DNA of 64,000 nucleotides from an uncultured Candidatus Saccharibacteria bacterium (GTDB lineage Bacteria > Patescibacteriota > Minisyncoccia > Phycocordibacterales > Phycocordibacteraceae), in NCBI GenBank assembly GCA_964402535.1, contig CAYOCH010000002.1:6661-70660 (forward strand). Reading direction: 5' to 3'. Below, piece by piece: positions 16,570 through 57,900 of the stretch (within the stretch, counting starts at the first letter, position 1; each line of letters opens with the position of its first letter). The notes beneath the pieces were generated by a model. The model worked only from the letters and a program-made list of their open reading frames with translations. It was not told where the DNA came from and made no database searches. A program made the position numbers and the translations under genes.

Positions 16570-16874
16570 GAACAATCTGCTCCGGCGGTAGGACTCGAAC
16601 CTACAACCAACGCCTTACACGTGTCCTCTGATTACTCAAAGGGGTGGACTATATCATCACCGGATCTCGGTGCGAGGCGCTTCGTACCTTTCGGCACTAC
16701 TCCCGTGCGGGATAGTCTCTGAACCTTCACGGCGCCGTTCTTGCGAATGTGCCGCGCTTGGCTGCTGATTGCCCTCGTCTTGCTCGTTCGGGGTTCCAGC
16801 AATTCACCTCGTTATTCGACTCGAATTCCTTCGAGAAGCTGCGTTAAGCCACAGGGCGCTGCTCTACCATTGAG
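16570..16874 (-). tRNA. tRNA-Asn (GUU) interrupted by a group I intron in the anticodon loop
   Basis: 5' exon TCCGGTGTAGCTCAATGGTAGAGCAGCGCCCTGT (16841-16874). 3' exon TAAGGCGTTGGTTGTAGGTTCGAGTCCTACCGCCGGAG (16570-16607). Spliced product folds as a canonical cloverleaf with anticodon loop CUGUUAA and discriminator G73. Confidence 0.8.
16608..16840 (-). ncRNA. group I self-splicing intron (233 nt) inserted between anticodon positions 35 and 36
   Basis: Conserved P (AATTGCTGGAA), Q (AATCAGCAGC), R (GTTCAGAGACTATCC) and S (TGATATAGTCC) elements in canonical order. R/S can form P7. Intron begins after exon U and ends with G. CUGU/GCAG can form P1. Confidence 0.8.
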
Positions 16875-16959
16875 CTACACCGGAATATGTCGCTCTCCTT
16901 GCGGAGAGCTAGAAGCATATTAACCGAAAATTGGGGCGCTGCAATGGTACAGTTAGGCC

Positions 16960-38001: not shown

Positions 38002-38125
38002 GCGATCCTCCCTGTAAAGGTTCAGCTAACAAGCAAAGGATAGCATACATATGCGCGCATGTCAAGCAAGCATTTATCCACAAAAAGAGTCGGCGCCCCG
38101 AGGGCGCCGATGAATGCGTGCCGGT

Positions 38126-41398: not shown

Positions 41399-42805
41399 AT
41401 GCAAATAGGCAGATGGAATCATCAATCATCCGGCGGCTCTCACGGGGGCAGTCGGGGCTCTCGTCATGACGGCGAGCGCCGTTCTCATACCTCTCATAGC
41501 GCTCACACGTCGAGCGACACCGGCCATGCGCCGCGCCGACGCTCGTTCTCACCGGAGCGCGATGGGGCGCGCCGGAGCTACGGCGAGCGCCGTGGCTATA
41601 GCGGCCGCAGCAGTGGGCGCTCGTTTGGCGGCGATCGGCCGCGCGGCGGCAGCCGCGGTCGCGGCAGGGGAGGCGTCGGCGCCTTCGGCATGACCGAGAG
41701 TGAGATCGCCAAGTTCGTGAACAAGTCAGATGGTCCGGTAGAGGTGCAGCAGGCATTTACGCCTGAACACTCTTTCACCGACTTCGTGATCAACGAGCAC
41801 TTGAAGCGCAATATTCTCGCACGCGGCTACGAGACGCCGACGCCAATCCAGGACAAGGCGATCGAGCCAGCTCTCGAGGGCAAGGACGTGGTCGGTCTCG
41901 CAGAGACCGGCACCGGCAAGACCGCGGCCTTCTTGATCCCGCTCATCGATAAGGTGATGCGGGTGAAGGGGGAGCGCGTCCTCGTGATGGCGCCGACGCG
42001 CGAGCTCGCCGTCCAGATCGAAAAGGAGTTGGCCGGCTTCGCGAAGGGGCTCGGCTTCCGCGGCATGGTCGCGGTCGGCGGGGCGAACATCAACCCGCAG
42101 ATCTCGCAGCTCCGGCACAACCCGTCATTCGTGATCGGTACGCCGGGCCGCTTGAAGGACTTGATGGAGCGTCGTGCGCTAGACCTCTCTGGCTTCGGCA
42201 CGGTCGTGCTTGACGAGGCAGACCGGATGCTCGACATGGGCTTTATCGACGACATGCGCTTCATCCTCGGCAAGATGCGCGCAGAGCGTCACACGCTCTT
42301 CTTCAGTGCGACGATGTCCAAGGAGATCGAGTCGCTGATCGGCGACTTCTTGACCGACCCGGTCATCATCTCGGTCAAGACGCGCGACACGTCGAAGAAC
42401 GTCGATCAGGATGTCGTACGGATCCCGCGCGGCGCCGACAAGTTCAACGTGCTTGTCGATCTCTTGCAGGACCGCGACTTCAGCAAGGTGCTCGTCTTCG
42501 GTCGCACCAAGTACGGCGTCGAGAAGCTCGGCCGCATGCTCCACAAGAGCGGTATCAAGGCCGAGTCGATCCACGGCGACAAGTCCCACAACGCCCGTAT
42601 CCGAGCGCTCGAGCAGTTCAAGAGCGGTAAGGTGACGGCTCTTGTGGCGACCGACGTTGCCGCCCGCGGCCTCGATATCCCGGCCGTCTCGCACGTGATC
42701 AACTACGACCTGCCCTCGACCTATGAGGACTACGTCCACCGCATCGGCCGCACCGGCCGTGCAGAGGCCAAGGGCAAGGCGCTCACGTTCGTAGCCGATC
42801 GATAA
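41399..42805 (+). CDS. DEAD-box ATP-dependent RNA helicase with N-terminal Arg/Ser/Gly-rich extension
   Basis: Q-motif (TPIQ), motif I (AETGTGKT), DEAD (VLDEAD), SAT, HRIGRTGR. The first ~95 aa are RS/RGG low-complexity; the true start may be downstream. Confidence 0.85.
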   Translation: MQIGRWNHQSSGGSHGGSRGSRHDGERRSHTSHSAHTSSDTGHAPRRRSFSPERDGARRSYGERRGYSGRSSGRSFGGDRPRGGSRGRGRGGVGAFGMTESEIAKFVNKSDGPVEVQQAFTPEHSFTDFVINEHLKRNILARGYETPTPIQDKAIEPALEGKDVVGLAETGTGKTAAFLIPLIDKVMRVKGERVLVMAPTRELAVQIEKELAGFAKGLGFRGMVAVGGANINPQISQLRHNPSFVIGTPGRLKDLMERRALDLSGFGTVVLDEADRMLDMGFIDDMRFILGKMRAERHTLFFSATMSKEIESLIGDFLTDPVIISVKTRDTSKNVDQDVVRIPRGADKFNVLVDLLQDRDFSKVLVFGRTKYGVEKLGRMLHKSGIKAESIHGDKSHNARIRALEQFKSGKVTALVATDVAARGLDIPAVSHVINYDLPSTYEDYVHRIGRTGRAEAKGKALTFVADR

Positions 42806-42823
42806 TCTGCAGACCAAAGAGAA

Positions 42824-42851
42824 AAAGAGGCGGAGAAATCCGCCTCTTTTG
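42824..42851 (+). terminator. intrinsic terminator after the helicase gene
   Basis: agaggcgg-agaaat-ccgcctct followed by TTTT. Confidence 0.6.
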
Positions 42852-43262
42852 CATTGTATATACGGCATATCTTGTCTCGTCGAGACGAGATAGCAAGATG
42901 ATACGCGGGTGGATGATAGTAGGCGTGTACGAATGCTGCGATCGTAGCTGTGAGGTGGTCTTGAGCATGGACAGTGCCGGCATGCGGAGGCAAATCTCGG
43001 AGAATCTCCGTGGAACCACGATGACTGTTGATGCTGGTGTCTTGAGGCTCAAAATTCGCGTATGAGGGGGGGTCACATTTTGCGCACTTTTGGCCGCAGC
43101 AAATGGAGCGAGTCGGTGGCTCGATATCTTGCAGATCAAACTTTGAGCTACCTGAGACAGTCGATGCCATCCGAAAATTTTGCTTGAAAAGTTATCCACT
43201 CATAAAGATGCAATGAACTGGAAATAATCAGTTAGTATCTGATTAGTTCCACTCTTGTACGG

Positions 43263-46200
43263 ATGAAATCGAAGCGCGAAACGAAGGGCCTCATCTCCAC
43301 CCGCTACGCCGGAAAAATTTCGGGCTATACGTCTGCCTACTTGCGCCGCCTCGCACGCTCCGGTGAGATCGAGGGTGTGCAGGTCGGCCGCGTGTGGATG
43401 ATCCGCCAGGCCTCTCTGATTCGCTTTCTCGACGAGCAGGCCAAGCGCAAGGAGGAGCTCTCCAAGGAGCGCGCCCGCGTCCACGCCGAGGAGTACCTCT
43501 CACACCAGGCGCCGGTGAAGCGCGTAGTCGCCAAGATCGCGAAGCCGATCCCGGTCAAGAACGTCGACGTCGAGGGGCTCGTCTCGAGCTCGCGCTCGCT
43601 CGTGGTCACGGTCGTCGTGGCGCTCGTCGCTGGCACGATCGCAGCACAAGGTCTCACGCCGACGCTCACAAGGATCGCTGCGCAGCCGGCGGCGGCACTC
43701 AACGCCGGCGAGCAGATCGCCGTTGCGACCTACGAGACGATCCACGGCCTCTTCACCTCGACGACGAGTGCGCTTGCCGACCTCTTCGCTCCGGCGCCGA
43801 CGATCGTGGTACCGGCTCCGCAGATCCGCGTGAACAAGCCGCCGCTCGCAGTCGCGTCATCATCACCGACGCAGACCAAACCGAAGCAGGTCGCTATCGC
43901 TCCGATTCTCCCGGCTCCGTACAAGGAGCCGGCACCCGTTTCGTACCCGACCTACGTCACGACCATCAACGGCGTCTCGCAGAGCTATGTCGATGCCGCG
44001 GTCTCCGCGATGCGGAGCGGAATCCTCGCCACCGTCTCGGGGATGCTCGCGCCGGTCGCGCAGCAGACCGTCGTCAATCAGACGACCATCCAGCAGGTCA
44101 ACATGATCCAGCGGCTCGGCGGCCTGATCGTCGACAACGGCCAGTTCAACGGCGGCACGTTCGACAAGGGGACGATGACGAACGGCATCGCCGTGAATGC
44201 CGAGAATGCGACGTTCACGAATCTCTCGGCGGGCAACGTGAACCTGGGCGCATCGAACCTCGCGACGACGACCGTCTCGGGCGATCTCACGCTCTCGGGC
44301 GTCTTGTCGGCGAACACGAAGGCTGTCGCGCCCTACTTCGTCGCCACCGCCTCGAACGCCACCAGCACCTTTGCCGGCGGCCTTGCGGTCGGCACGCAGC
44401 GTCTCGTGGTCGACTCGACCACCGGCCGCGTCGGCATCGGCACGACCTCGCCAGCACAGACACTCGAGGTCTCGAGCGCCGGCGACTGGAGCGGCATCAA
44501 CATCACGACGACCGCCGCGGGCAACCACCAGGCGATCTCCTTCAATCACCCGGAGGGCTATCCCTTCCAGATCTTCACGAGCTACACCGGCGGGCGACCT
44601 GACACGCAGTTCTACGTCGGGAGCAGCGGGACGGTCTTCATGTCGAGCAACAAGTTGGCAGTGAACGGCGGGGCGATCCCGTCGGCATCTGAGGCAGCAC
44701 TCTCGGTCGTGCCGGTAGGCACTGAGCCTGGCTTGAACGTCAAGAATAACGTTAACGGCTCATCGTCGCTCTTGGTGACGAATCTCGGCAAGGTGGGTCT
44801 CGCTTCTACGACTCCCTGGGCGCAGCTCTCGGTGAACCCGAACGGCATCACGGGCCCCGCATTCGCGATCGGCAGCTCGACCGCCACCAACTTCGTCGTG
44901 ACGAACGGCGGGCAGGTGGGTATCGGGACGACAAGTCCGGCATACACGTTTGATGTTACCGGTAGTGCGCGGATGGATAACCTCGCAGTGTCACAGAGCG
45001 GCGGCTTCCGCGCTGTCACGGGCAGCTGGGCCGGATCGCCGAGCGGCGACAACCTGAGCTGGCTCGCATTCGGTTGGGCTGACAATACGAAATACCATCG
45101 TATCCGCACGTGCGGGTTCTCGAACGATAACTTGTGCTTCGATTTGATCAATCCGTCGACGCACTACCTCTCGATCACCGGGCAGCTGAACTCGGTCTAC
45201 GGTGCGACGATCGGCTATGCCGCGGGTACTGCCGGACCGACAAACGGCCTTGCCGTGAGCGGCTCGACAGGCATCGGCACCACCTCTCCGTGGGCGCAGC
45301 TCTCGGTTAACCCGAACGGGATCACTGGCCCCGCATTCGCAATCGGCTCCTCGACCGCCACGAACTTCGTCGTGACGAATGGGGGGAATGTCGGGATCGG
45401 GACTACTTCGCCGCAAAGCACGTTTGTCGTCAATGGCACGTCCCAGTTTACGAATAATGCTGTGTTCAATGCGCAGATCAGCGTCAGTCAGATTACCTCG
45501 CCGAATAACTTGTTGATTGCTGCAGGCGGACCACTGGTGCAGATTGCGGGTCACCTAGTGCCGCAAGTTACCGGTACATATGATTTGGGTTCTGCGAGTG
45601 CCGGATGGAGAAACGTGTATGTAACCGGGAACGTCGGCATCGGCACCACCTCGCCAAGCGCGACACTCGCAGTGCAGGGCAACGGCCTTTTCTCGGGCAA
45701 TCTCACCGCCTCGGGCAATACCTATATAGGTGCGACATCGGCGAACACCCTCACGGTGAACGCGCTCGTTAACTCTGACATCACGCCGAGCACGAACGCG
45801 GTCAACTCGCTCGGCTCGCCGAGCTTCTATTGGAAGAATGTCTACGCCGCGAACGTGATCGCCAACAACATCAGCGCCGCCTCGACCACGATCGCGGGCA
45901 CGGCCTCGGCCACCTTCACGATCAACTCGGGCAACGCGACGGCCGACACGCTCGACTCCTCACTCGTCTTCTTCCGCGGGACCGTCGTCCCGAACGCCGT
46001 TCTCGGTTGGGACTCGACCAACAAGCGCTTCACGATGAATCAGCCGCTCTTTATCCAGAACGCGTCGAATAACGGCGGCGGCGTGATCTCGCTCGCGGTA
46101 CAAGGGCTCGCTGGCCAGACCGCCGACGTCCTCCGCATCGCCTCCTCGACCGGCACGAGCTACTTGAACGTGACTGCGGGCGGGAATGTGGGGATCGGGA

Positions 46201-49200
46201 CGGCGAATCCGGGAAGCCTCTTCACCGTCTCTGGAGGGTCATCTGGTGAGCAGCAGGTGGCTTTGTTCACGAGTACCGGTTCAGCTAATACGAAGATCGC
46301 GATCGAAAATGCTGCGGTCGGCGGTCACAGGTGGGAATTGAGGTCAACATCGACCGGCACCTTCGATATCGTCGACAGAACCGCGCCTGCTCAGCGCTTC
46401 GTCATAGACACCGCCGGTAACGTCGGCATCGGCACGACCTCGCCGTGGGCGCAGCTCTCGGTGAACCCGAACGGGGTTACGGGCCCCGCGTTCGCAATCG
46501 GCAGCTCGACCGCCACGAACTTCGTCGTGACGAACGGCGGGCAGGTGGGTATCGGGACGACGAATCCGCAGCAGGCGCTGCATATCAGTACGACGAATAC
46601 GTATCAGGGCATCTTCTTGAACGGCAACGCAGCGCCCTCGATCGGGTTCGCCGGCTGGAGCGGGCTGACGCCCGCGTGGAAGGTGGGCATCAGCGGGTCG
46701 GCAGGGAGCAACTTGGCTATCAGCACCGGAGCGGCGAACGCCGACCTCTTCAACTTCACGACCGCGGGCAATCTCGGCATCGGGACGACCTCGCCGTGGG
46801 CGCAGCTCTCGGTGAACCCGAACGGGGTTACGGGCCCCGCCTTCGCGATCGGCTCCTCGACCGCGACGAACTTCGTCGTGACGAACGGCGGGCAGGTGGG
46901 GATCGGCACAAGCAATCCGACGCTCGGGACGGGCTCGACGACCCTCGAAGTCTACGGCAACGGCGGCGGCTTCACCCAGTACGGCTCGCTGTCTCTCGCC
47001 AACACTACGAACTCCGGCAGCTCCTATTCAGGCTCGGTCGACTACTACGGCGCTACCACGTTGTACGGCCAGATTCGCACGCACGTGATCACCGGCGGCC
47101 CGAGCGGTATGTCCCAGATCGAATTGTCGGCGCTGAATGGCGGCGCGCTGAATCAGGTGTTCACGGTCGGTGGCACCGGCAGCGTGACGGTCGGCACCGC
47201 AAACGGTGTGTCGAGCGGGTATCTTGGCGTCTACAACTCGGCCGGATACGGGCAGACGAATACCGGCATCATCTTGGGCAACATGCAGACGGGCGCCGGC
47301 TCGAATATCGGGGTCAACTTCGTCGACTACGCGCAGAACAACATCGCGCAGATCCTCGGCGTGTATCCGGGCGGCACCAAGGCCGGCAGCCTCGCGTTCT
47401 CGACCGGGAACGGCACGAGCCTGAACGAAGCGATGCGCATCACGAGCGCCGGCAATATCGGCATCGGTACCTCGACTCCCGCAGAGAAACTGGACGTCGC
47501 CGGGCGGCTCTCGATCGAGGATATCTCGGGCAATCCGCCGTCGGCGGCTCGGTCGTCATTTGTCTTCGAGAGCAATACGGACCCTCTCAATACGTCCGTC
47601 TCGGCGCTCTACGTGTATCCGAGGACCGACACCTCTAAGCGCTTCTATTTCGGCACGACGACGCACCAGTTCTATGCCGTCGACTTCTCGAACGTCTTGA
47701 GCATCACGGGTGTGACCAGTATCCAAGGCGCTCCCAACACGCAGGCGATCGATTTTTCATCGGCTGCGTATGACACGACCTACGGCACGGCGACGTTCGA
47801 CTTCAAGCCCACGGTCGATAACACCCGGCCGGTCGTGCTGCGCAACTCGCGCGTCACCGACAGCGCGACCTCGGTCGGCTTCGTGCTGAAGACGGTCAAT
47901 ACGCTCTCGAACGCATCGGCGAAGCTCCTGACGCTCGACAACAACACGACGAACCTTCTGACCGTCATGGCGAACGGCAATGTCGGCATCGGGACCACTT
48001 CTCCATTCGCTGACCTTTCGATTGGCGGGGCGAGCAACGGGACTAACCCGCTCTTCGCGGTCTCGACCTCGACTGCGAGCGCGACCTCGACCGCCTTCAT
48101 CATCGACAAGAACGGGAATGTCGGCATCGGGACGGCGAACCCGGGCCAGGCGCTCACGGTGAATGGCGAGATCAGCCTCTTGGGCGCATCTGGCTCGTCG
48201 CGCGGGCTCTTGGGCGCGCCGACATGGGACAACTCATACGTCTCGCTCCAGAACGGGTCGTTGAGTGAGAGCGCCGCGAACTCGGCGATCAACCAAAACA
48301 GCCTCGGTGACACGATCGTGAACGCCGCGACCGGCAGGGCGCTCCACCTGCGCGTCGGCAACACCGAGCAGATGAGCTTTAACGGCACCATCGCCGCATT
48401 CCAGAACGTGAACGTCGGCATCGGGACCACGAGCCCGGCAGACAATCTCGACGTATACGCGCCGAACAACGCGGGATTGGCGAAGATTGGACTGATAAGG
48501 GGCGATGGAGCGGGGTATCTGACGCAATGGACCTATGGCCCGGCGGGGAACGGATTCCTCGAGATCGGCGAGAACGAGGCGTTCAACAGCTCCGGCTCGG
48601 CGCGGGTACAGTTCAATACCGGAGCGCCGTCGTGGTTCCAGCAGTTCAACACCAACGTCGACAGCTATCAGATCGCACGCATCCCGGCGGGCGGCAGCAC
48701 GGCAAACGTGATGCTCTATATACAGAGTAACGGCAACGTCGGCATCGGCACCACCTCTCCCTCGCAGGCGCTCTCTGTGCAGGGCAATGGCCTCTTCTCG
48801 GGCAACATCACGGCAGCGAACATCACGGCGACTGGGACGGTGACTGCCGCGAATTTCTCCGGCCCAGGTGTAGATCCGCAAGGATATGGCAACTACTTGT
48901 CGATAAATCCTGCGACTCAGGATCTCAAATTCTCACGCGGCGGCTACTGGCTCAATTTCAATTTGACCAACAACACGCCTGTCATCACATCACAGAACAA
49001 TCTATTAGCCCTGCCTGGTATCACAGCGACATCCTCTGTATTTACGGGATACTCCGCGCAGCAAGATGTGAGTCGCTCAACGATCCTCTCGCTCACGCGG
49101 CAGAATACCGGCGCCCGCTTTCAACAAGCAGCAAACTTCATAATGGGCGGCTACGATTCGGCACAAACTGCGCATACGCAATTGGATATCGCCCTCACGA

Positions 49201-52200
49201 ACACCGCGACAAACGGCGTCCCAGACGCGACCGTGATGAGCCTCTTGGGCAACGGCAACGTCGGCATCGGTTCGACCACGCCTGCCGCGACGCTCGCGGT
49301 GCAGGGCAACGGCCTCTTCTCGGGCAACATCACAGCCGCGAACATCACTGCGACTGGGACGCTCTCGACAACCGGCGCGATCTCGGCACCGTACTTCGTC
49401 GCGACGAACGCGCTCGCAACGAGCACGTTTGCAGGCGGCATCACGGGGCCGGGCAGCTTTGCGGTGCAGCAGACGACTGGCTATGTCGGCATCGGGACGA
49501 CGTCGCCGACGAGTGCACTCTATGTCGCGGGCAATGGCCTCACATCAAGCGTTATCACGGCTGACGGAGGCGCGAACTCTATATTCGGCCTCACCGTGCG
49601 GGGCTATCAGAACTGGGGCTCGGGTGTCGCCTACACCAACCAGACTGCAAACCGTACCTACGTCACGTATCAGGACACGACAGGTAATTTCAATATCTAC
49701 GACAGCACGGTGGGGAATCGGGTCACGGTGACTTCTACCGGCAGCGTCGGCATCGGCACCACGACTCCGTTCTATAAGCTTGAGGTGAACGGCACGGTCG
49801 AGGTCGCGAACGGGAGCGGTCTTTATGCGCTCTCGTCGAGCGGCACGCACTACCGGCTCGTGGACCTCGACGCGAGCAACGTCGTGAACATGGGCCCCAA
49901 CGGCTCGATCCAGATCGCGAACGGCGCGCCCTCGAGCGCGATCTTCGTGCAGAACACTGGCTCGGTCGGGATAGGCACGAATAGCCCTCAAGTGGCGCTG
50001 CATGTAGGGCCGACGGCAGCCGGCGCGAATGAGGTCGCAAGATTCGAACATGCGAACGCTGCGGGTTCATCCGGCATCACGATCTATCAGAATGGGACAC
50101 TAAAGGGCTCTCTCGGTACTGGCGACTTCGTGGCGACTGGGGGAGCCAACACAGACTTCGGCATCCAGTCTGCTGGCAACATGCTGTTCGCTACTGGCGG
50201 TACTGTCCAAAAAATGGTGCTGACATCAGGCGGCAATGTCGGCATCGGGTCGACCTCGCCCACGAGCCTCTTGAGCGTCTATGGCGCGGCGGGGGCGGCC
50301 ACCGTCACGATCGGCTCGCCCTCGAACTCTGCGCTCTTGACGCTCGATCGCGGCTCGAACACGCAGAACGCGACCTTTAACCTCAACACCGCGGGCGTGA
50401 ATTACGGCTACTTCGGCCTCGACACGAGCGCCAACTCGGTGACGCTCGCCTCGTCGAACAACAACCAGCTCACGGTCTCAGCGCACAACGCAAACCTCCT
50501 CCTGCGCGGCGGCACGAGCAACGGCATCATCATGCAGACCAACGGCAGCGCCGAGGCGATGCGCGTCACAAGCGGCGGCAACGTCGGCATCGGGTCGTCG
50601 ACGCCAAGCGCTGTCCTCGCGGTGTCGAACACGGCCGCGACCGCCGCCAACACGCCGCTCTTCACGATCGCTTCGACGACGGGCGGCACCTCCACGTCAA
50701 GCTTGATGACCGTTCTCGCGAACGGCAACGTCGGGATAGGTACGAGCAATCCGACCTCGCCGCTGTATGTATCGGGTGCGCCTGCGTTGCAGGCGGTCAT
50801 CGGCACGACGGCGAACACGCAGAACTGGATCTCTATCATCAAGTCGAGCAGTCAGACTGCGAGCTTCGGCATCCGCGCCAATAACTACGGCTTCCTCCAG
50901 GCGAACACCGGGATGCAGATCGAGAACTCGTCGTCGCAACCCTATATCGTGTTTGACGGGGTGAACGAAGGGATCGGCACCACGTCGCCATCTGCGACGC
51001 TCGCAGTGCAGGGCAATGGCCTCTTCTCGGGCAACATCACGGCTGCGAACATCACCGCGACGGGGACGCTCTCGACCACAGGAGCGATCTCGGCGCCCTA
51101 CTTCGTCGCGACGTCGCCGACCGCGACCTCAACCTTCGCGGGCGGCGCGACGTTCGCGACGAGCGGCGGCAACGTCGGTATCGGGACAGCGAATCCAGGC
51201 TACGCACTCGACGTCGCCGGTCTTGCGGGCATCAATGGGCGAGTGAAGCTTGGCGCCGGCAACGATCAGGTGGACATTGCGAACGGTGGCCTCGTGCTAC
51301 ATGACAGCGGCACAACTGCATATGTCGAGGCGCAGAATTCTAACAAGCCGCTCGTTCTCGGTACCAGTAACGCGGATATTCAATTCACTACAGGATTCGG
51401 CGTCACAGAGCTGATGAGGATCAAAGCGAACGGGAATGTGGGGATCGGCACGTCGACGCCCGCGGCTACGCTCGCGGTCGCGATGGCGAGCACAACACCG
51501 GCCTTCTATATCGGCGCGGCAGGGAGCTCGTCGCCCGCCTTCTATGTCGGCAGCGCGAACGGGAGCGGGCTCGTGGGTATCGGCACCTCGGCACCCGACC
51601 ATCCGCTCCAGATCACCGGCAACCCGCTACTCACGAGCGCGGTCGTGCGTGTGGGCGCCGTCGCGCAGAACGTCTCTGCATTGCGCGTGAAGGGCTACTT
51701 CAACGGCTTGAACGGCAATGAGGATGCCGGCGGCGTGAACGTCTACAACTACAACTCGGCCACGGTGCAGGCGACGCTCGGCGGCGACAGCGGCCTCTTC
51801 GCCTCGCCGCGCGGCACCAACCTCGTCGCGGCGATCGTCCGCGGCCTCACCGGCCAGACAGCCAATCTGCAAGAGTGGCAGGATGTGAACGGCAATCCGC
51901 TCTCTGTGATTACGAGCAGCGGCAACCTCGGCGTGGGCACCTCCTCGCCCGCGCAGGCGCTCTCGGTCGCGGGGACGGGCTACTTTGCGACGAATGTCGG
52001 CATCGGCGTGGCGAACCCGGGCGTATATAGCCTTATGGTGCAGGCGCCGACGATCGGCGGCCAAGTCTTCGGCGTCACTACGAATTATGGCAACAGCGGC
52101 AAGTTCGAAGTCAGCTTCAACAGCGGCAACGACCCGTTCGCTCACTTGACTACTAAGCAGGGTGGACAGATCGCCTACTACGACATGTACGACTCGGTCG

Positions 52201-54920
52201 GCAAGGCGATGCAGCTTGGTCAGACATTCGGCAACGGGATCAACCTCTCGGCCTCGACGAGCATCCAGATCGGCATCGACTCGAACAATCTCGGCACCGG
52301 CATGTTCGAGATCGCAAGAGGGAACACCTGGAACGGTCGCGCGGGCGTCGACGGCACCTCGCTCTTCAAGATCCTCAACAACGGCAACGTCGGCATCAGC
52401 AACACGAATCCCTCAACCCTCCTCGACGTGAACGGCACGACCACGCTGCGCAACCAGGTGTCGGTGAATGGGGCGAGCTTCTACGACAACACCGGCAAGA
52501 TCGGGCTCGGGGTCAAGATGACGAGCGACCTCAAGACTGCGCTCTATGTCACTGACAACTTTGCGGCGATGAGCGCGATCAATGGCGCATACATCTCATC
52601 GGTCATATACGGCGCCAATACGCAGCAAGGGAAGAACGCGTACTATGGAGCCATCAATGACCCGACGCTCTCGGTGAATATCCAAAACGGTTCCGGGTTC
52701 GTGAGCTATCTCAATAACACCAACAACACCGGCACCAACATCAATCACGGCGGTCTCTTCTATCAGAATCAGACTATGAATGTGGCCAACACCGGAACCG
52801 ATTATGGCTACACCTCGTACAACTACATGCAGAGCAGCGGCAACCCGACCTCGCTTGCGAATTATGTCGGCTTCTACTCTCGCGGGCAATTCGCGGTCGC
52901 GCCGGCGACGACGACCAACCAGTACGACTTCTATGCCGACAACTTCGTGGGGACAGGTAACGGCGCGGTCGTGAACCGCTACGGCGTCTATATCGGCTTC
53001 AACAGCACCGGCATCACGAACCCCTACGGCATCTATCAAGCGAGCCCGACTGTCCAGAACTACTTCGGCGGCAACGTGGGGATCGGCACCACGACGCCCC
53101 TCGCGAAGCTCGCAGTTCTCGGCACGGCAGAGCAGCTCCGTCTCAACTACGACGCGACGAACTACGCGAGCTTCACGGTGAGCAGCGCCGGCACGCTCAC
53201 TATTGCCCCCACGTCGAACGTAATGAATATCTCGGCGACGACACTGAATACGAATACGATCAACGTCGCCACCGGCAACGTCATCAATTTCAACGGGGTA
53301 GGCTACCTCCGCAGCCTGGGCGGCGTGTTTAACATCAATGACACCAACACGAACAACATCCTTCTCGCCAATGGTGGCGGCAACGTCGGCATCGGCACGT
53401 CGACACCTCAAAACAAGCTGACGATCGTCGGCGGGATCGGCACGTTCGTTAACACCAACTCCTCCTACCGAACCGACTGGGATGCCGGCTATATGATCAA
53501 CGACAAGCTTGCGATATCGAAGTACGGCGCAATTGGCCAGCTCTCGATCGACGCACAGGGTCAGTTCGGTTCGGTAATGGTCGGAAATATCGGCAACTAT
53601 GTGAGCAATTTGCTTGTGAGCGGCAACGTGGGGATCGGGACCACGACGCCTGGGAAGAAGTTGGTTATAGATAGCGGCTCGAATGGCAATAGCTTTGCGG
53701 CAAGCTTCAGCAATGGTGGAGCGGGCAGACCATATTGGCTGTATAATTTCCAGCAGCAGAATGTGCAGTGGACTTCTGGATTCGACATTGGAGGGAATAC
53801 AAACGACTTCTCCATCAGCAATACGTACTCTGGAACCCGAGATGTTTTCCACATCGAAAACACGGCGCCTGCGAATAGTTTTAGAATCCAAGCAAATACT
53901 GGCAATATCGGTATCGGTACGACGAGCCCTTCGACCCTCTTACACCTCTACTCGGCGAGTGCGCCATCGATAACGATTGAGTCGTCTGCTGCTGGCGGCG
54001 GCGCGACCGATAGGCGTCTCACCATCAATCAGAACAATGGAGGTACGGCGACACTCACCGCGATGGAGGATGAGAACAGCTCAACTCAGGCGGCGTTCAT
54101 CATCAACGCGACTAACAATCCGAGCAACGCCGCGCTCGCGATTCGGCCCATATTCGATCTGCAGAACGGCGGCAACAGCAAGCTCTTCGTCACAGCCGCA
54201 GGCAATGTCGGCATCGGCAGTACGTCGCCGAATACGAAACTTGTTGTCTCTGACAACAGCGGCCAGACGCTCATCGGCAGCATGGCCGCTTCGTACGGAT
54301 CCATCGGTTTCCAGCCGACCCTCACCACGTCCAATTTCGCGCTCGCCGGCAACACATCTGAAACGATACTTAATACGCTCGCGGGCACGTCGCTCAAGTT
54401 CCGCGTAGCGAACGCAGACAAGATGGTTATGGACCAAAACGGCAATGTCGGCATCGGCACCACGACACCTAGCAATAAGCTGACCGTCGCAGGCGGAGCA
54501 GACTTCGGTACGGCATACAGCCCGACTGGACAGACGATACGTCTAGCGCCGAGCGGAACGTTTTCAGAAGCGGATGTCATTTCTCAAGCGGTAGGATTGT
54601 CGATCTTCGCTAATCCGCAGGCCACAGCGCAGCCGTCATGGATCGACCCGCTTATGAGTCTCCCGAACGGGGCAGGACTGATGTCGACGACGGGAGTCGA
54701 TCTGATTTTGTCCGCGTCATCTCATGCTGGCGGCGGCGTCACGATCGCCGGATATCATAACGGCGCTGCACATGACATCAAGTTCTTCAACGACGGCAAC
54801 GAACAGATGCGCCTCACGACCGCTGGTAATCTCGGCATCGGGACCTCGACGCCGGGCGCGACGATGAACGTCTACTCGGGCGCCGGGACGCCGTGGAATA
54901 CCTACCCATCAGGCACCTGA
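43263..54920 (+). CDS. giant membrane-anchored repeat protein (3885 aa): N-terminal excisionase-type HTH + TM anchor + tail-fibre-like 'GNVGIGTTSP' repeat region
   Basis: N-terminal …LISTRYAGKISGYTSAYLRRLARSGEIEGVQVGRVWMIRQASLIRFL (HTH_17-like). TM helix SLVVTVVVALVAGTIAAQGL. Then ~3700 aa of Gly/Thr/Ser/Asn-rich modules with recurrent GNVGIGTTSP(W/S)A…L(S/A)V and APYFVAT…ATSTFAGG motifs. Ends at TGA, in frame with the next ORF. Confidence 0.8.
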   Translation: MKSKRETKGLISTRYAGKISGYTSAYLRRLARSGEIEGVQVGRVWMIRQASLIRFLDEQAKRKEELSKERARVHAEEYLSHQAPVKRVVAKIAKPIPVKNVDVEGLVSSSRSLVVTVVVALVAGTIAAQGLTPTLTRIAAQPAAALNAGEQIAVATYETIHGLFTSTTSALADLFAPAPTIVVPAPQIRVNKPPLAVASSSPTQTKPKQVAIAPILPAPYKEPAPVSYPTYVTTINGVSQSYVDAAVSAMRSGILATVSGMLAPVAQQTVVNQTTIQQVNMIQRLGGLIVDNGQFNGGTFDKGTMTNGIAVNAENATFTNLSAGNVNLGASNLATTTVSGDLTLSGVLSANTKAVAPYFVATASNATSTFAGGLAVGTQRLVVDSTTGRVGIGTTSPAQTLEVSSAGDWSGINITTTAAGNHQAISFNHPEGYPFQIFTSYTGGRPDTQFYVGSSGTVFMSSNKLAVNGGAIPSASEAALSVVPVGTEPGLNVKNNVNGSSSLLVTNLGKVGLASTTPWAQLSVNPNGITGPAFAIGSSTATNFVVTNGGQVGIGTTSPAYTFDVTGSARMDNLAVSQSGGFRAVTGSWAGSPSGDNLSWLAFGWADNTKYHRIRTCGFSNDNLCFDLINPSTHYLSITGQLNSVYGATIGYAAGTAGPTNGLAVSGSTGIGTTSPWAQLSVNPNGITGPAFAIGSSTATNFVVTNGGNVGIGTTSPQSTFVVNGTSQFTNNAVFNAQISVSQITSPNNLLIAAGGPLVQIAGHLVPQVTGTYDLGSASAGWRNVYVTGNVGIGTTSPSATLAVQGNGLFSGNLTASGNTYIGATSANTLTVNALVNSDITPSTNAVNSLGSPSFYWKNVYAANVIANNISAASTTIAGTASATFTINSGNATADTLDSSLVFFRGTVVPNAVLGWDSTNKRFTMNQPLFIQNASNNGGGVISLAVQGLAGQTADVLRIASSTGTSYLNVTAGGNVGIGTANPGSLFTVSGGSSGEQQVALFTSTGSANTKIAIENAAVGGHRWELRSTSTGTFDIVDRTAPAQRFVIDTAGNVGIGTTSPWAQLSVNPNGVTGPAFAIGSSTATNFVVTNGGQVGIGTTNPQQALHISTTNTYQGIFLNGNAAPSIGFAGWSGLTPAWKVGISGSAGSNLAISTGAANADLFNFTTAGNLGIGTTSPWAQLSVNPNGVTGPAFAIGSSTATNFVVTNGGQVGIGTSNPTLGTGSTTLEVYGNGGGFTQYGSLSLANTTNSGSSYSGSVDYYGATTLYGQIRTHVITGGPSGMSQIELSALNGGALNQVFTVGGTGSVTVGTANGVSSGYLGVYNSAGYGQTNTGIILGNMQTGAGSNIGVNFVDYAQNNIAQILGVYPGGTKAGSLAFSTGNGTSLNEAMRITSAGNIGIGTSTPAEKLDVAGRLSIEDISGNPPSAARSSFVFESNTDPLNTSVSALYVYPRTDTSKRFYFGTTTHQFYAVDFSNVLSITGVTSIQGAPNTQAIDFSSAAYDTTYGTATFDFKPTVDNTRPVVLRNSRVTDSATSVGFVLKTVNTLSNASAKLLTLDNNTTNLLTVMANGNVGIGTTSPFADLSIGGASNGTNPLFAVSTSTASATSTAFIIDKNGNVGIGTANPGQALTVNGEISLLGASGSSRGLLGAPTWDNSYVSLQNGSLSESAANSAINQNSLGDTIVNAATGRALHLRVGNTEQMSFNGTIAAFQNVNVGIGTTSPADNLDVYAPNNAGLAKIGLIRGDGAGYLTQWTYGPAGNGFLEIGENEAFNSSGSARVQFNTGAPSWFQQFNTNVDSYQIARIPAGGSTANVMLYIQSNGNVGIGTTSPSQALSVQGNGLFSGNITAANITATGTVTAANFSGPGVDPQGYGNYLSINPATQDLKFSRGGYWLNFNLTNNTPVITSQNNLLALPGITATSSVFTGYSAQQDVSRSTILSLTRQNTGARFQQAANFIMGGYDSAQTAHTQLDIALTNTATNGVPDATVMSLLGNGNVGIGSTTPAATLAVQGNGLFSGNITAANITATGTLSTTGAISAPYFVATNALATSTFAGGITGPGSFAVQQTTGYVGIGTTSPTSALYVAGNGLTSSVITADGGANSIFGLTVRGYQNWGSGVAYTNQTANRTYVTYQDTTGNFNIYDSTVGNRVTVTSTGSVGIGTTTPFYKLEVNGTVEVANGSGLYALSSSGTHYRLVDLDASNVVNMGPNGSIQIANGAPSSAIFVQNTGSVGIGTNSPQVALHVGPTAAGANEVARFEHANAAGSSGITIYQNGTLKGSLGTGDFVATGGANTDFGIQSAGNMLFATGGTVQKMVLTSGGNVGIGSTSPTSLLSVYGAAGAATVTIGSPSNSALLTLDRGSNTQNATFNLNTAGVNYGYFGLDTSANSVTLASSNNNQLTVSAHNANLLLRGGTSNGIIMQTNGSAEAMRVTSGGNVGIGSSTPSAVLAVSNTAATAANTPLFTIASTTGGTSTSSLMTVLANGNVGIGTSNPTSPLYVSGAPALQAVIGTTANTQNWISIIKSSSQTASFGIRANNYGFLQANTGMQIENSSSQPYIVFDGVNEGIGTTSPSATLAVQGNGLFSGNITAANITATGTLSTTGAISAPYFVATSPTATSTFAGGATFATSGGNVGIGTANPGYALDVAGLAGINGRVKLGAGNDQVDIANGGLVLHDSGTTAYVEAQNSNKPLVLGTSNADIQFTTGFGVTELMRIKANGNVGIGTSTPAATLAVAMASTTPAFYIGAAGSSSPAFYVGSANGSGLVGIGTSAPDHPLQITGNPLLTSAVVRVGAVAQNVSALRVKGYFNGLNGNEDAGGVNVYNYNSATVQATLGGDSGLFASPRGTNLVAAIVRGLTGQTANLQEWQDVNGNPLSVITSSGNLGVGTSSPAQALSVAGTGYFATNVGIGVANPGVYSLMVQAPTIGGQVFGVTTNYGNSGKFEVSFNSGNDPFAHLTTKQGGQIAYYDMYDSVGKAMQLGQTFGNGINLSASTSIQIGIDSNNLGTGMFEIARGNTWNGRAGVDGTSLFKILNNGNVGISNTNPSTLLDVNGTTTLRNQVSVNGASFYDNTGKIGLGVKMTSDLKTALYVTDNFAAMSAINGAYISSVIYGANTQQGKNAYYGAINDPTLSVNIQNGSGFVSYLNNTNNTGTNINHGGLFYQNQTMNVANTGTDYGYTSYNYMQSSGNPTSLANYVGFYSRGQFAVAPATTTNQYDFYADNFVGTGNGAVVNRYGVYIGFNSTGITNPYGIYQASPTVQNYFGGNVGIGTTTPLAKLAVLGTAEQLRLNYDATNYASFTVSSAGTLTIAPTSNVMNISATTLNTNTINVATGNVINFNGVGYLRSLGGVFNINDTNTNNILLANGGGNVGIGTSTPQNKLTIVGGIGTFVNTNSSYRTDWDAGYMINDKLAISKYGAIGQLSIDAQGQFGSVMVGNIGNYVSNLLVSGNVGIGTTTPGKKLVIDSGSNGNSFAASFSNGGAGRPYWLYNFQQQNVQWTSGFDIGGNTNDFSISNTYSGTRDVFHIENTAPANSFRIQANTGNIGIGTTSPSTLLHLYSASAPSITIESSAAGGGATDRRLTINQNNGGTATLTAMEDENSSTQAAFIINATNNPSNAALAIRPIFDLQNGGNSKLFVTAAGNVGIGSTSPNTKLVVSDNSGQTLIGSMAASYGSIGFQPTLTTSNFALAGNTSETILNTLAGTSLKFRVANADKMVMDQNGNVGIGTTTPSNKLTVAGGADFGTAYSPTGQTIRLAPSGTFSEADVISQAVGLSIFANPQATAQPSWIDPLMSLPNGAGLMSTTGVDLILSASSHAGGGVTIAGYHNGAAHDIKFFNDGNEQMRLTTAGNLGIGTSTPGATMNVYSGAGTPWNTYPSGT
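44817..46920 (+). repeat. intragenic near-identical ~125-nt DNA repeats (family A: WAQLSVNPNG(I/V)TGPAFAIGSSTATNFVVTNGG(Q/N)VGIGT)
   Basis: Copies at ~44817, 45291, 46446 and 46797 (>90% nt identity between the last two), plus a fifth in the second ORF at ~56484. Confidence 0.7.
45652..51150 (+). repeat. intragenic ~75-150-nt repeats (family B: ATLAVQGNGLFSGNITAANITATGTLSTTGAISAPYFVAT…ATSTFAGG)
   Basis: Copies at ~45652, 48760, 49283 and 50993; the 49283 and 50993 copies are >90% identical over ~150 nt. Confidence 0.7.
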
Positions 54921-54968
54921 GCTGCGATCGTCAACCAGTCGCAGAACATTAGCGGCGGCAACGGCCTC

Positions 54969-57900
54969 GTGGTGGTCAACAAGTATCTCTCGGCCAACTC
55001 GACCACCTTCGAGGTTGGGACGATCAACGACAGCAACGGCGTCTACGCCTCATCGCTCAAGATCACGGGCGACAACGCGGTCCGCGTGCCGCTCACGCTC
55101 CAGCTCGGCAACTCGGGCGGCAACGTGACCAGTCTGCAGCTCGGCGCCAACACCTCGGTCGCGAGCGGCGCCGTGATCGCGAATATCTATAACGCCAGCA
55201 ATAATCCGGGCATCACGGTCGGTACGAGCCGCACCGACGGCACCGCCTTCACGGTCGCAAACGGGATCACTTATGACGCGAACAAGGTGCCGAACTCGGG
55301 CGGCACCGCGCTCCTCACCGTGCTCGGCGGCGGCAATGTTGGCGTGGGCACCACCTCGCCGTATGCGCTCCTCGCCCTCTCGAACTCAGTGTCGACGCCC
55401 GCTAACACGCCGTTCTTCACGATCTCGAGCACAACCGGCGGCACCTCTACCTCGACCCTCATGACCGTGCTCGCGAACGGGTACGTGGGCATCGGGACGG
55501 CGAGTCCGGGACGATTCCTGGATGTGGTGGCGAGTACCACTGCCGGGACAGAAATCGCGCGATTCACCAACACGCCTGTAAGCAATCGGTATATCTCTGT
55601 CCGCACGGTGGGCGCGTCTGATTTCGGCGGTGCGTACATCGGCGGGCCGATGTTGGACAGCAGTGATCCCCAGGTCATTTTCGGCAAGAATCTGTTACTG
55701 CCAAGTAACGGTGCGAATATAGCATTGGCTCAATCCAGCTTGACGAGTTCGTCTGCCGGGGGAACGGTGCTGACGAGCGGCGGATCGACGGCCCAAGCCG
55801 GGACAACTATCCAGCTGGGGAATAGCTCGACTTTCCAAGGGAATCTGTACGTTAAAGATGGGTCGGGGAACACGGTGATGACAGTCCAACCGACAGGTAA
55901 TGTCGGTATTGGTGCCACCGCACCAACCTCGCCCTTGACGGTCGTGACGCCCTCACTGTGGGGCAATGGGGCAGCAGGCGAGAATCTAGGCGTGACGGTC
56001 AACCCGTCGGCCAACGGCACGCTCTATGGGCTTTTTAACCTGACAAGTGTCACGGCCACGACCACGACCGGCAACGCGGCCGTCGTCGGCTCTCAGAACA
56101 CGGTGACGGCCACCAATAACAACGGCGGCAACACCACGCTCACCGCCGTCTCTGGGACGACGAACAACACCGGCGGTGGGAGCGCAAGCCAGATGACCGG
56201 CTTCTTTACGAATCCGGCGGTCTATAACACCGGTTCGTCGGTGAGCTCGCTCTATAACTTCTACGCAAACGACGTCTATCTCGGCAACGGCACCTCGCAG
56301 CCCTTCGGCTCGGTCAACAAGCTCTACGGCTATTATGTCGGTGCGCTCCAGAGCGCCTCGACCAACTACGGCCTCTTCTTCGCCAACAACCCGAACGGCG
56401 GCTCGATCGCCTCGGCCGCCTCGACCAACATCTCGATCCTGCCCGGCTCGGGCGGGAGCGTGGGGATCGGCACCACATCGCCGTGGGCACAACTTTCGGT
56501 CAACCCGAACGGGATCGCGGGCCCCGCCTTCGCGATCGGCTCCTCGACCGCGACGAACTTCGTCGTGACGAACGGCGGGAATGTGGGGATCAACACGGTT
56601 AACGCGACGAACGCTCTCACGTTCGGCGCGACAGGCGGCTATGAGATCTCGACGGAGCCGAACAATGCAAACGACCTCAACATCACGACGAACGCGACGA
56701 ACGGCGGCGGGATCTCTCTCGGTGCAAGAAACTCGAACAAATCGATCTATGTGAGTATCGGGGGTGGAGTCGGTATCGGCACGACCTCGCCGCGCGCCGC
56801 TCTTGAGATCGGCGGCAGCGCGAACCCGTCCGTCTACCTCAACTCGCAATATTCAACGCCGAGCACGATGCAGTGGTATATCCCGAACATCGCGACGATG
56901 TCGCTCGTCGCAAATGCGGTCGGGAACGAAAACGCAAACGCGCAGTGGGTCATGGACATGGGCTCTAGTGACGGCCTTACAGATTCTTTTGGCGTACTCC
57001 GCGCTAGTACCGTGGGTTCCACCCGCGTGCCGTTCTTCGTGGTGAACAACAACGGCAACACCGGCATCGGCACCACGACGCCGGGCGGCGACCTCTCGAT
57101 CGCAGGCAGCGCCGGCGGCACCAACCCGCTCTTCCTCATCTCTTCGAGTACCTCGGGCTACGCGACCTCGACCGCGTTCATGGTCGACAGTTACGGCAGC
57201 CTTGGCATCGGTCGGGTGCCGAACGCGCAGCTCTCAGTGGCTGGCGACGCCTATATCGGTACTGGCGCAGGCTCCTTCACCTTCACCTCCAACTACAACT
57301 TCAACGCACAAGGCACCAACTTCGGCCCGAGCCTCAACATCTCTGATGGCGATGCGACAAACCGCTGGGCCTCACTGCGCCTATCGACGGCGGGCGGTCA
57401 ATGGGAGATGGCCGACATGGGCGGGAACCTCGGATTCCTCCGCGGCTCGAACAATCGCGTAGTGATCGGTCGCTCCGATAGCAGCAATGCGAACCTGAAC
57501 GTCTACAACGACGCCAACACCATCCTCTTCACGGTTCAGCCGACGGGCTACGTCGGTATCGGTCCGAGCAACCCAGTTAATCAGCTCGACATCGGCATCG
57601 GGCCGTTCGCAACCGCCAAGACGGCCAACTTCAGCACCCTCAACATCGCGAACACGGCGACCTCCTCGTCGTCGTTCACGAAGACCGGCATGCAGATCTC
57701 ATCGACCGGCGCGTGGACAGGCCCGAACTACGGCCTCTATGTCTCGGCGGTCTCGGGCGGCACCAACAACTACGACGCGATCTTCAACGGCGGCGGCAAC
57801 GTCGGTATCGGCACCACGACGCCTTCGGATCTCTTGTCACTCGCTTCAACTAATCCGAGAATCGACCTGTTTGACACGAATGTTTCGGGTCCGGCGCGTG

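Follow-up and report, generated by a model that had tools for sequence, protein, structure and literature searches.

Why should a bacterial surface protein of several thousand residues begin with a domain of the kind that usually binds DNA? The question is posed by a locus within a 64-kb stretch of patescibacterial DNA (64,000 nucleotides, hereafter the window). Patescibacteria (CPR) are ultrasmall bacteria that live on other microbes and account for a large part of bacterial diversity; to our knowledge, the means by which they sense or regulate this attachment have hardly been worked out. A first-pass annotation of the window had placed an excisionase/MerR-type helix-turn-helix (HTH), followed by a charged segment and a single transmembrane (TM) helix, at the cytoplasmic N-terminus of a giant surface protein. 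We examined this N-terminal region, the protein family to which it belongs and the DNA directly upstream of the gene.

The giant gene and its N-terminal module

The N-terminal sequence originally quoted is the exact translation product of the ORF at 43263..54920, whereas the quoted size of more than 5000 aa had to be revised: the ORF encodes 3885 aa, and >5000 is reached only by ignoring the in-frame TGA at 54918. The next ORF (54969..60281, 1770 aa) shares the same frame, so the earlier reading had passed through one stop. In the alignment with homolog P0034, this TGA lies opposite a Trp ('PSGT*AAIV' vs 'PSGNWAAQV'), and P0044, P0017 and P0066 are single ORFs spanning from the HTH to the Peptidase_S74 and Ig-like domains. 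An alternative genetic code was rejected as an explanation, TGA terminating 21 of the 53 crude ORFs elsewhere in the window. The gene is organized as follows:

43263..54920, + strand: giant-gene ORF, ATG start, 3885 aa, ending with the TGA at 54918-54920
43263..43265, + strand: start codon ATG of the giant gene, with a homologous ATG in all orthologs
43290..43433, + strand: winged helix-turn-helix of Xis/MerR type, residues 10-57 (b10-12, helix 13-20, recognition helix 24-33, wing 38-48)
43434..43538, + strand: conserved charged helix or stalk, residues 58-92, conserved to about residue 83, part of a continuous AlphaFold2 helix (49-92)
43539..43595, + strand: variable basic/proline-rich juxtamembrane linker, residues 93-111 (AlphaFold2 pLDDT <50)
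43596..43655, + strand: predicted single transmembrane helix or signal anchor, about residues 112-131 (AlphaFold2 helix 110-128)
43656..54917, + strand: extracellular fibre region, ~35 G-[IVL]-G-[TS] ('GNVGIGTTSP') repeat units, from translation and repeat count
54918..54920, + strand: in-frame TGA splitting the giant gene, the frame being identical on both sides
54921..60281, + strand: C-terminal continuation of the fibre, its ORF called from GTG 54969, with Peptidase_S74 and Bact_surface_Ig-like domains

The isolated N-terminal 78 aa match the Pfam family HTH_17 (PF12728) over residues 15-59 (E=5.8e-7, 30.1 bits, gathering cut-off 27), whereas longer queries score just under that cut-off, with 26.2 bits when 403 aa are used and 22.7 bits with the full-length protein. 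AlphaFold2 predicts residues about 10-78 with pLDDT >90 and a b-a-a-b-b topology leading into the long helix 49-92. This winged-helix topology superposes on solved Xis structures, and the nearest neighbours of the module among solved structures are, with few exceptions, DNA-binding proteins of the Xis/MerR superfamily (Xis, BldC, RdfS, AlpA, TipAN, TraN and RacA). The profile match of the isolated module and the predicted fold thus both bear out the excisionase-type fold initially proposed for residues ~10-55. The module has no curated family in NCBIfam, gave no match in a PDB sequence search and has no second copy within the 64-kb window.

The charged segment announced ahead of the membrane corresponds to the stalk helix, which is present and conserved: Q59, K63, R74 (H in the window), E77 and Y78 (100%) share one helical face, E77 and Y78 being 96-100% conserved. 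The invariant motifs of the module are GY..DY..L.R.G...G..W and E-Y, and basic residues are conserved in the recognition helix and wing (R29, R32 and R43). The juxtamembrane linker varies from ortholog to ortholog in length and sequence. It is followed by the single TM helix that had been expected, with a Kyte-Doolittle 19-residue maximum of 2.24 at residues 113-131, the sole such segment within 3885 aa. In the Pfam scan, the fibre ORF contains nothing besides the HTH, and ORF 54969..60281 contains Peptidase_S74 (71.2 bits, cut-off 22; two stretches, the best at residues 1278-1334) and Bact_surface_Ig-like (36.2 bits). The locus is chromosomal, syntenic with L001 and conserved in gene order across genomes; its neighbours are RmuC, Y1_Tnp, DEAD helicase, RecR and DnaB.

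A large family of proteins sharing the module

We defined the family by an 83-residue profile of the module and an exhaustive profile search, which returned at least 440 protein clusters (50% identity) at E<=1e-10 and at least 2526 at E<=1e-3. A word-indexed homolog search with an 84-aa alignment found none where the exhaustive search found thousands, which we attribute to a limitation of the tool. In family proteins, the module lies almost always at the extreme N-terminus, beginning at about residues 4-8, and the match runs to profile position 82-83 in nearly all of them. Of the 150 best family matches, 131 have a single TM after the module and 48 reach at least 1000 aa. Lengths across the family extend up to 7214 aa; the four 'short' matches that were checked are all contig-end fragments of giant genes. 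All named family members belong to Parcubacteria/Paceibacterota; the taxonomic breadth derives from a few named cluster members, as a scan of genome contigs with narrow peptide patterns recovered only seven close relatives. Some members carry two tandem HTH modules, which score 50.9-58.2 bits against HTH_17. In one branch, the giant gene is immediately preceded by the gene for a small HTH-TM paralog that has almost no ectodomain; such paralogs retain the HTH and TM although only about 26-37 of their residues are extracellular. The core of the initial proposal, a giant surface protein with an Xis/MerR-type HTH at its cytoplasmic end, is hence supported and generalizes to a large family.

Could the HTH belong to a separate small gene merged with the fibre gene, as the first-pass annotation had considered, or could the start codon be wrong? 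An in-frame GTG (codon 85, V85) precedes the basic stretch and the TM and would, as the real start, create a classical signal-anchor N-region; moreover, Shine-Dalgarno sequences are rarely used in this genome, so starts are hard to call. Yet HTH, helix and TM form one uninterrupted ORF, without stop or frameshift, in the window, in every ortholog (10 orthologous loci) and in those 131 of the 150 best family matches. All orthologs begin with MKSN or MKSK at the homologous ATG, upstream of which there are only six open in-frame codons, and a conserved promoter-like region lies directly before ATG 43263. In all of these proteins, only a few residues precede the HTH, and the variable linker contains no conserved internal start codon. 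The HTH is also the best-conserved part of the ORF, ortholog identity amounting to 61-73% over the module vs 30-49% across the first 303 aa. These comparisons contradict an artefact of this kind, which was rejected; as judged from this conservation, the module is an ancient and strongly constrained part of the protein family.

An unusual signal-anchor region had been another suggestion. As a description of topology it stands, but as a function it is insufficient, since the small paralogs, with about 30 extracellular residues, keep the HTH-TM unit. This retention also implies that the unit has a role independent of fibre export, and it counts against the view that the module is only a topogenic or export helper, in which a fast-folding basic domain would set the N-in orientation, or slow and organize the export of a long chain, the HTH fold being incidental. 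Such a role would be analogous to that of the extended signal-peptide regions of giant autotransporters, and several features agree with it: the module always lies directly N-terminal to the sole TM, mostly on very long exported proteins, and no cleavable-signal-like N-terminus was found in the translated giant protein. However, the degree of identity and the invariant motifs exceed what topogenesis would need, and some members carry the HTH in tandem; we regard this explanation as very unlikely.

A conserved dyad upstream of the giant gene

The DNA preceding the giant gene is itself conserved in sequence and contains three elements:

43192..43200, + strand: conserved upstream box TTATCCACT, DnaA-box-like, invariant in seven orthologous upstream regions
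43219..43251, + strand: dyad-symmetric element TGGAA-A-TAATCAG-N7-CTGATTA-G-TTCCA, candidate operator, with a perfect 7-N7-7 core at 43225-43245
43233..43238, + strand: -10-like hexamer TAGTAT at the dyad centre, TATTAT or TACTAT in orthologs, with a putative promoter role

The arms of the dyad are invariant in seven promoters (the window, L002-L006 and L015), whereas flanking DNA and synonymous codon positions vary. The element occurs once in the window vs 0.05 expected. Its 22 specified bases were found at four loci in 241 million metagenome records, each directly upstream of an orthologous HTH gene, and in all collections searched TAATCAG-N7-CTGATTA occurs solely before the giant gene. Within the window, the half-site TAATCAG shows no enrichment (4 copies vs 3.6 expected) and hence no sign of many chromosomal sites.

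Across 15 aligned upstream regions, columns T1, A2 and T6 of the hexamer are invariant and A5 is conserved in at least 90%. The ATG follows 24 nt after the hexamer; in many other genes of the window, a TATAAT-like box sits 6-8 nt ahead of the ATG and a Shine-Dalgarno sequence is absent. In the window, TAGTAT lies 32 nt downstream of TTATCCACT; in more distant family members the box is TTATCCACA, appearing as TTATCC(A/C)CA, usually 31-32 nt before the -10-like hexamer, and it is also found upstream of a third family gene in L010. A sigma-70 consensus scan of 42700-43400 returned no promoter, so the promoter assignment comes solely from conservation; an alternative promoter reading of the dyad region is TGGAAA-19 bp-TAGTTC.

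A more distant branch differs in both partners of the putative interaction. Its recognition helix reads S-D-Y-L-A/S-R vs S-A/R-Y-L-R-R, and the same place in its promoter is occupied by other symmetric elements, CCGAA...TTCGG around the hexamer and TCGGATATCCGA abutting the ATG; this correlation of operator and recognition helix comprises two groups only.

The dyad could also be an RNA hairpin if the true transcription start lay further upstream. As RNA, it would fold with an unremarkable stability of -12.5 kcal/mol (z = -1.7), and no known RNA motif above noise was found by Rfam in 42800-43400. One C/T difference in the outer arm of the dyad would change a G-C into a G-U pair in RNA.

Possible functions and related systems

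The presence of a conserved N-terminal HTH next to a conserved symmetric promoter element raises the possibility that the fibre is coupled directly to the gene that encodes it. Our preferred reading, to which we assign a probability of about 0.4, is that the HTH is a membrane-tethered DNA-binding module with the invariant dyad at the -10-like hexamer of its own promoter as its preferred target. The giant gene product is a type-II (N-in) membrane-anchored surface fibre, whose first ~83 residues form a cytoplasmic module (winged HTH plus helical stalk) connected by a flexible linker to one TM helix. As the first domain to leave the ribosome, the HTH could feed back on the transcription of a very costly gene and/or hold the locus at the membrane during synthesis and export of a chain of 3.9-5.7 thousand residues. 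The latter role would resemble the 'transertion' of VtrA/VtrB, membrane-bound transcription factors by which the target locus is captured and tethered at the membrane (PMC9977878). In the wider family, the small HTH-TM paralog just upstream of the giant gene may share these sites. The membrane-tethered autoregulator of the first-pass annotation thus gains circumstantial support from the gene-specific dyad, with DNA binding itself still putative.

Several observations speak against DNA binding: the family-mean charge of the HTH is only mildly positive (+2.2, with +6 in the window protein and a few members neutral or acidic), CbpM and DafA use the same fold for protein binding, and the conservation of E77 and Y78 in the stalk is left unexplained. 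The dyad could also bind another factor. The fibre is probably trimeric, owing to its Peptidase_S74 chaperone domain, which fits awkwardly with a two-fold symmetric site.

Protein binding is the main alternative: the HTH and stalk might dock the membrane anchor to a cytoplasmic partner (for instance in the cytoskeleton, the divisome or the export machinery) or to the small paralog, without DNA. The cytoplasmic HTH of RodZ, which binds MreB, and MerR-fold CbpM, which binds the CbpA J-domain, provide analogies. RodZ moreover shares the whole layout, namely a cytoplasmic HTH, a disordered linker, one TM and an extracellular domain; its HTH is however of XRE type (HTH_25) and its ectodomain is DUF4115, neither signature being found in the giant protein by Pfam scans. 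Such an adaptor would leave the gene-specific invariant dyad unexplained, and it sits poorly with conserved basic residues in recognition helix and wing and with structural neighbours that are almost all DNA binders. We consider it somewhat less likely than DNA binding. Were the module nevertheless to bind a protein, it would still define these fibres and offer a practical way to recognize them where assemblies are fragmented.

If instead the HTH binds the promoter, as we favor, it would represent the first case of an Xis/MerR fold in a membrane-integrated one-component regulator and the first such regulator physically continuous with a giant adhesin-like fibre. This would offer a concrete and testable path by which host contact could reach gene expression, or a means of tethering a giant gene at the membrane during its own export. 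A stronger version would make fibre and HTH a one-polypeptide contact-to-DNA signalling device of an episymbiotic bacterium, switching the dyad/TTATCCACA promoters of the fibre-gene family. A host cell binding or pulling the fibre would alter the oligomeric state of the HTH-stalk or, alternatively, the HTH-stalk would be released by regulated intramembrane proteolysis, as in a Notch- or RsgI-like mechanosensor with an Xis/MerR-type HTH, widespread across Paceibacterota. This extension appears distinctly improbable.

No published description of an HTH_17-TM-giant-fibre architecture was found in the literature, and a preprint on giant genes (10.1101/2023.11.21.568195) makes no mention of it. The analysis defines a large uncharacterized family in which the biggest surface fibres of the lineage all start with a cytoplasmic DNA-binding-type domain, and whose genes have an unusually conserved promoter architecture in common.

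In chain layout, the closest known systems are the ToxR-like receptors (ToxR, TcpP, CadC and VtrA/VtrB), in which a cytoplasmic N-terminal winged HTH, a juxtamembrane linker, a single TM and an extracytoplasmic domain form one polypeptide and the DNA-binding domain is by definition of OmpR type (Trans_reg_C; PMC5430869). The giant protein shows the same order (HTH at residues 10-57, one TM at about 112-131, the remainder extracytoplasmic), but its HTH is of Xis/MerR type (HTH_17), and the absence of a Pfam match to Trans_reg_C places it outside the OmpR-type definition. ToxR-like receptors carry a small sensor as their outer domain; its counterpart in the giant protein is a repeat fibre of 3.8-5.5 thousand residues with a tail-fibre chaperone domain.

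Excisionases, recombination directionality factors and BldC are small soluble proteins of 50-80 aa, unlike the present domain, which continues into a stalk, a TM and a giant ectodomain. Most excisionases and directionality factors act with an integrase on mobile elements, whereas the giant gene is chromosomal and syntenic, with no integrase among its neighbours; membership in the excisionase functional class was thus rejected for a domain fused within a 3885-aa ORF. In contrast to MerR-family regulators and RacA, the module lacks the second wing with its helices and the effector domain, and its highly charged stalk helix runs towards a membrane anchor. It gave no Pfam MerR match and does not combine the HTH with the coiled-coil/effector domains characteristic of that family. 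The operator dyad of MerR proteins sits inside an over-long (19-20 bp) -35/-10 spacer. Here, a dyad is centred on the -10-like hexamer, and the alternative reading TGGAAA-19 bp-TAGTTC would provide a spacer of 19 bp.

At the other end of the protein, the Peptidase_S74 domain near the C-terminus (an intramolecular chaperone) and short Gly-rich repeats are shared with phage tail fibres and endosialidase-type trimeric fibres, a likeness that concerns the ectodomain and not the HTH. Unlike phage tail fibres, the giant fibre is cellular, extends over thousands of residues and carries both an N-terminal TM anchor and a cytoplasmic HTH.

Giant reading frame and its N-terminal module

The giant surface-fibre gene and the open reading frame (ORF) that follows it are laid out in the window as follows.

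43263..54920, +, giant ORF, ATG start, 3885 aa, stop codon TGA at 54918-54920
54969..60281, +, next ORF, 1770 aa, in the same reading frame as the giant ORF

The N-terminus quoted in the first-pass annotation is exactly what the giant ORF encodes, whereas the size it gave, >5000 aa, would be real only with read-through of TGA 54918-54920. The genetic code is standard, since TGA terminates 21 of the 53 other crude ORFs in the window. Because this TGA is aligned with a Trp of the homologous protein P0034 ('PSGNWAAQV' versus 'PSGT*AAIV' in the window), and because the relatives P0044 (6467 aa), P0017 (7214 aa) and P0066 (4235 aa) run within a single ORF from the HTH to a Peptidase_S74 and an Ig-like domain, both also present in the window's downstream ORF, we interpret it as a TGG-to-TGA change. 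Mutation, strain variation and sequencing error are all possible sources of this change, and tRNA-Trp might read through the codon.

The N-terminal 78 residues alone match the Pfam profile HTH_17 (30.1 bits, cut-off 27, E=5.8e-7), bearing out the fold first proposed; the score slips slightly under the cut-off in longer sequence contexts. AlphaFold2, supplied with an alignment of 5 sequences, predicted residues about 10-78 at a pLDDT of 93-96, with a strand (10-12), two helices (13-20 and 24-33), a beta-hairpin wing (38-48) and a long helix (49-92), the linker and transmembrane (TM) helix being low-confidence regions. The single TM helix initially noticed was recovered at residues about 112-131, the sole hydrophobic TM candidate in 3885 aa. 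Given that the segment between HTH and TM is basic, that the N-terminus bears no signal peptide and that the C-terminal domains are of typical extracellular kinds, the predicted topology is N-in/C-out.

A family of membrane-anchored giant fibres

The four close homologs all begin with MKSN and display the same HTH-TM fusion, in the order HTH, charged helix, variable linker and TM; their identity to the window protein is 61-73% over the first 84 residues versus 30-49% over the first 303. An exhaustive search of 1.84 billion cluster representatives with an 84-column N-terminal profile yielded 2526 proteins at E<=1e-3, 440 at E<=1e-10 and 12 at E<=1e-30. Among the best 150 of the 2526, nearly all match profile positions about 5-82 at protein residues about 5-82, and 131 carry a TM-like hydrophobic segment (16 of the 19 others are fragments of <200 aa). 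The first such segment lies at ~residues 100-150 when the HTH is single, and farther along in tandem-HTH and small-paralog forms. Forty-eight of these 150 reach at least 1000 aa (longest 7214 aa), G-[IVL]-G-[TS] repeats occur in many, and the four mid-sized matches looked up (861-959 aa) are all giant genes truncated by contig ends. The suggestion that a small upstream HTH gene had been fused in annotation does not hold, since HTH plus TM is the signature of a large family and the close-homolog alignment contains no conserved start codon between them; an annotation artefact is essentially excluded. The cytoplasmic, winged HTH of Xis/MerR type and its conserved stalk thus belong integrally to the N-terminus of these membrane-anchored giant fibres and are under strong selection there.

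The HTH-TM unit also occurs without the fibre. A distant syntenic branch has the gene order GatB, small gene, ~450 bp spacer, giant gene, GAPDH, pilin genes, and in 10 of 10 of its loci the small gene that immediately precedes the giant one encodes a family paralog. Each paralog (245-311 aa) starts with the HTH module, continues with an acidic linker and has its one TM 26-37 residues from the C-terminus; judged from sequence, it is a tail-anchored, membrane-tethered HTH protein with almost no ectodomain.

Coordinates of small paralogs in loci of relatives
L009:1323-2258
L010:337-1071
L011:1-920
L012:49-840
L013:13-924
L019:1225-2034
L020:1207-2100
L021:991-1782

Neither the window nor the 6 kb upstream in its own orthogroup contains such a paralog. 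Some family members have two tandem HTH modules; this sub-branch, with two copies before the TM (P0010-P0017, L018:606-, L010:1501-), resembles TraN in this respect, as that protein carries a pair of Xis-like domains in one chain. A purely topogenic role of the module, which fits poorly with both fibre-less paralogs and tandem-HTH forms, appears improbable.

Named members belong to Parcubacteria, Paceibacterota, Kaiserbacteria or only 'bacterium', and are merely annotated as 'helix-turn-helix domain-containing', 'DUF5011 domain-containing' or hypothetical; an NCBIfam search found no curated family for the module. The giant protein is laid out like ToxR-like receptors, which combine a DNA-binding domain in the cytoplasm with one TM and a domain outside, but lacks the OmpR-type DNA-binding domain that defines them (PMC5430869). 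Its module has the fold of HTH_17/Xis proteins, MerR and RodZ profiles do not match it, and its ectodomain resembles tail-fibre proteins with an intramolecular chaperone. An excisionase identity was rejected: there is no integrase partner, the protein is not small and soluble, and the locus lies on the chromosome in conserved synteny. The literature search returned no description of an HTH_17-TM-giant-fibre architecture, so the giant protein would be a membrane-tethered HTH protein of an architecture undescribed as far as that literature goes. Proteins of this build occur widely in Paceibacterota and provide a concrete way, open to experiment, in which the main surface fibre may be connected with DNA.

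Upstream dyad and possible partners of the module

The non-coding region ahead of the ATG at 43263 is about 400 bp long. Across 7 distinct orthologous loci its final ~75 bp show nucleotide-level conservation, whereas the DNA around them and synonymous codon positions vary.

43192-43200, TTATCCACT box, conserved in orthologous upstream regions
43219-43251, dyad extension TGGAA...TTCCA
43225-43245, perfect dyad TAATCAG-N7-CTGATTA, bracketing the hexamer exactly
43233-43238, TAnTAT hexamer (TAGTAT), 32 nt downstream of TTATCCACT

The dyad occurs once in the window (expected 0.05) and once per orthologous locus; its 22 specified bases were found at four loci of the metagenome collection, each time immediately ahead of the orthologous HTH gene. 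In this genome most genes have no Shine-Dalgarno motif (8 of 36 crude genes in the window have one), and many show a TATAAT-like box 6-8 nt upstream of the ATG, which suggests widespread leaderless transcripts; examples precede the starts at 1468, 30792 and 40149, and 10689 and 63795 on the reverse strand. Because of these two features, the invariant TA..AT hexamer is most simply read as a candidate -10 element with a ~17-nt leader, although a consensus promoter scan of the upstream region gave no match. With the hexamer as -10, the dyad would be an overlapping DNA element; as RNA it would form an unremarkable hairpin.

Upstream regions of the distant branch are alignable with that of the window and follow the order TTATCC(A/C)CA, usually 31-32 nt, TATTAT or TAGAAT, then TAGnTAATTCGGnTATCCGAC abutting the ATG; they feature a TCGGATATCCGA palindrome as well as CCGAA...TTCGG symmetry on both sides of the hexamer. 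In L010, a third gene of the family presents TTATCCACA, 39 nt, TAAAAT, 22 nt and ATG. Family genes share a highly conserved, symmetric putative promoter region. The recognition helix reads S-D-Y-L-A/S-R-L in the distant branch versus S-A/R-Y-L-R-R-L, and these differences, together with those of the upstream elements, are compatible with protein-operator co-variation between just two groups.

In many genomes, the -10-like hexamer of family genes has a DnaA-box-like 9-mer (TTATCCACT/TTATCCACA, sometimes TTATCCCCA) ahead of it (window 43192-43200; upstream regions of L002-L007, L010, L012 and L019-L021; L010:23833-23841), at a near-fixed distance of 31-32, occasionally about 40, nt. DnaA, the HTH itself or another factor could bind this 9-mer. 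A second exact TTATCCACA in the window, at 38074-38082, sits in a different intergenic region beside a terminator-like hairpin.

Conservation computed over 185 module instances revealed near-invariant A16, G21, Y22, D25 (A in the window), Y26, L30, R32, G34, G42, W45, S51 and L52, giving the motif GY..DY..L.R.G......G..W, and the recognition helix and wing retain their basic residues. One stalk face is also conserved (Q59, K63, L70, R74, E77 at 96%, Y78 at 100%), a stripe that suggests oligomerisation or a partner. Its invariant E77-Y78 and the modest HTH charge (+6 in the window versus a family mean of only +2.2) favour the main rival, a protein-docking module as in RodZ (PMC9804626) or CbpM, which we regard as possible though rather unlikely. 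Our preferred reading (probability about 0.4) is DNA binding by the HTH, with the dyad of its own putative promoter as the most probable target. Such binding would exert feedback control over a very costly giant gene and/or keep the locus at the membrane during chain export, as the membrane-bound VtrA/VtrB keep the T3SS2 locus at the membrane (PMC9977878).

Genomic neighbourhood

RmuC, a Y1 transposase-like gene and a DEAD-box helicase, with a terminator hairpin at its end, precede the giant gene, and a second Y1_Tnp, RecR and DnaB follow it.

40149-40850, +, IS200-like Y1 transposase-family gene
60319-61038, -, IS200-like Y1 transposase-family gene

These oppositely oriented genes flank the helicase and giant gene block. 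The RmuC-Y1_Tnp-DEAD order is common to the window and the ortholog locus L001; since the upstream Y1 gene is syntenic there, it may have been domesticated (RAYT-like) instead of belonging to a mobile element. Downstream of the giant gene in the relatives' loci L009 and L013 lie GAPDH and N_methyl (type IV pilin-like) genes, and a sortase and an Ice_binding/CLIPPER_2 surface protein are nearby at L001:4445-6864; these neighbours may be parts of a surface-appendage neighbourhood.

Elsewhere in the window, a tRNA gene at about 16580-16884 (-), for which ARAGORN made no call, appears to carry a group I intron (16625-16862; Rfam, 64 bits, cut-off 50) within the anticodon loop, with the acceptor and T-arm halves legible on its two sides.
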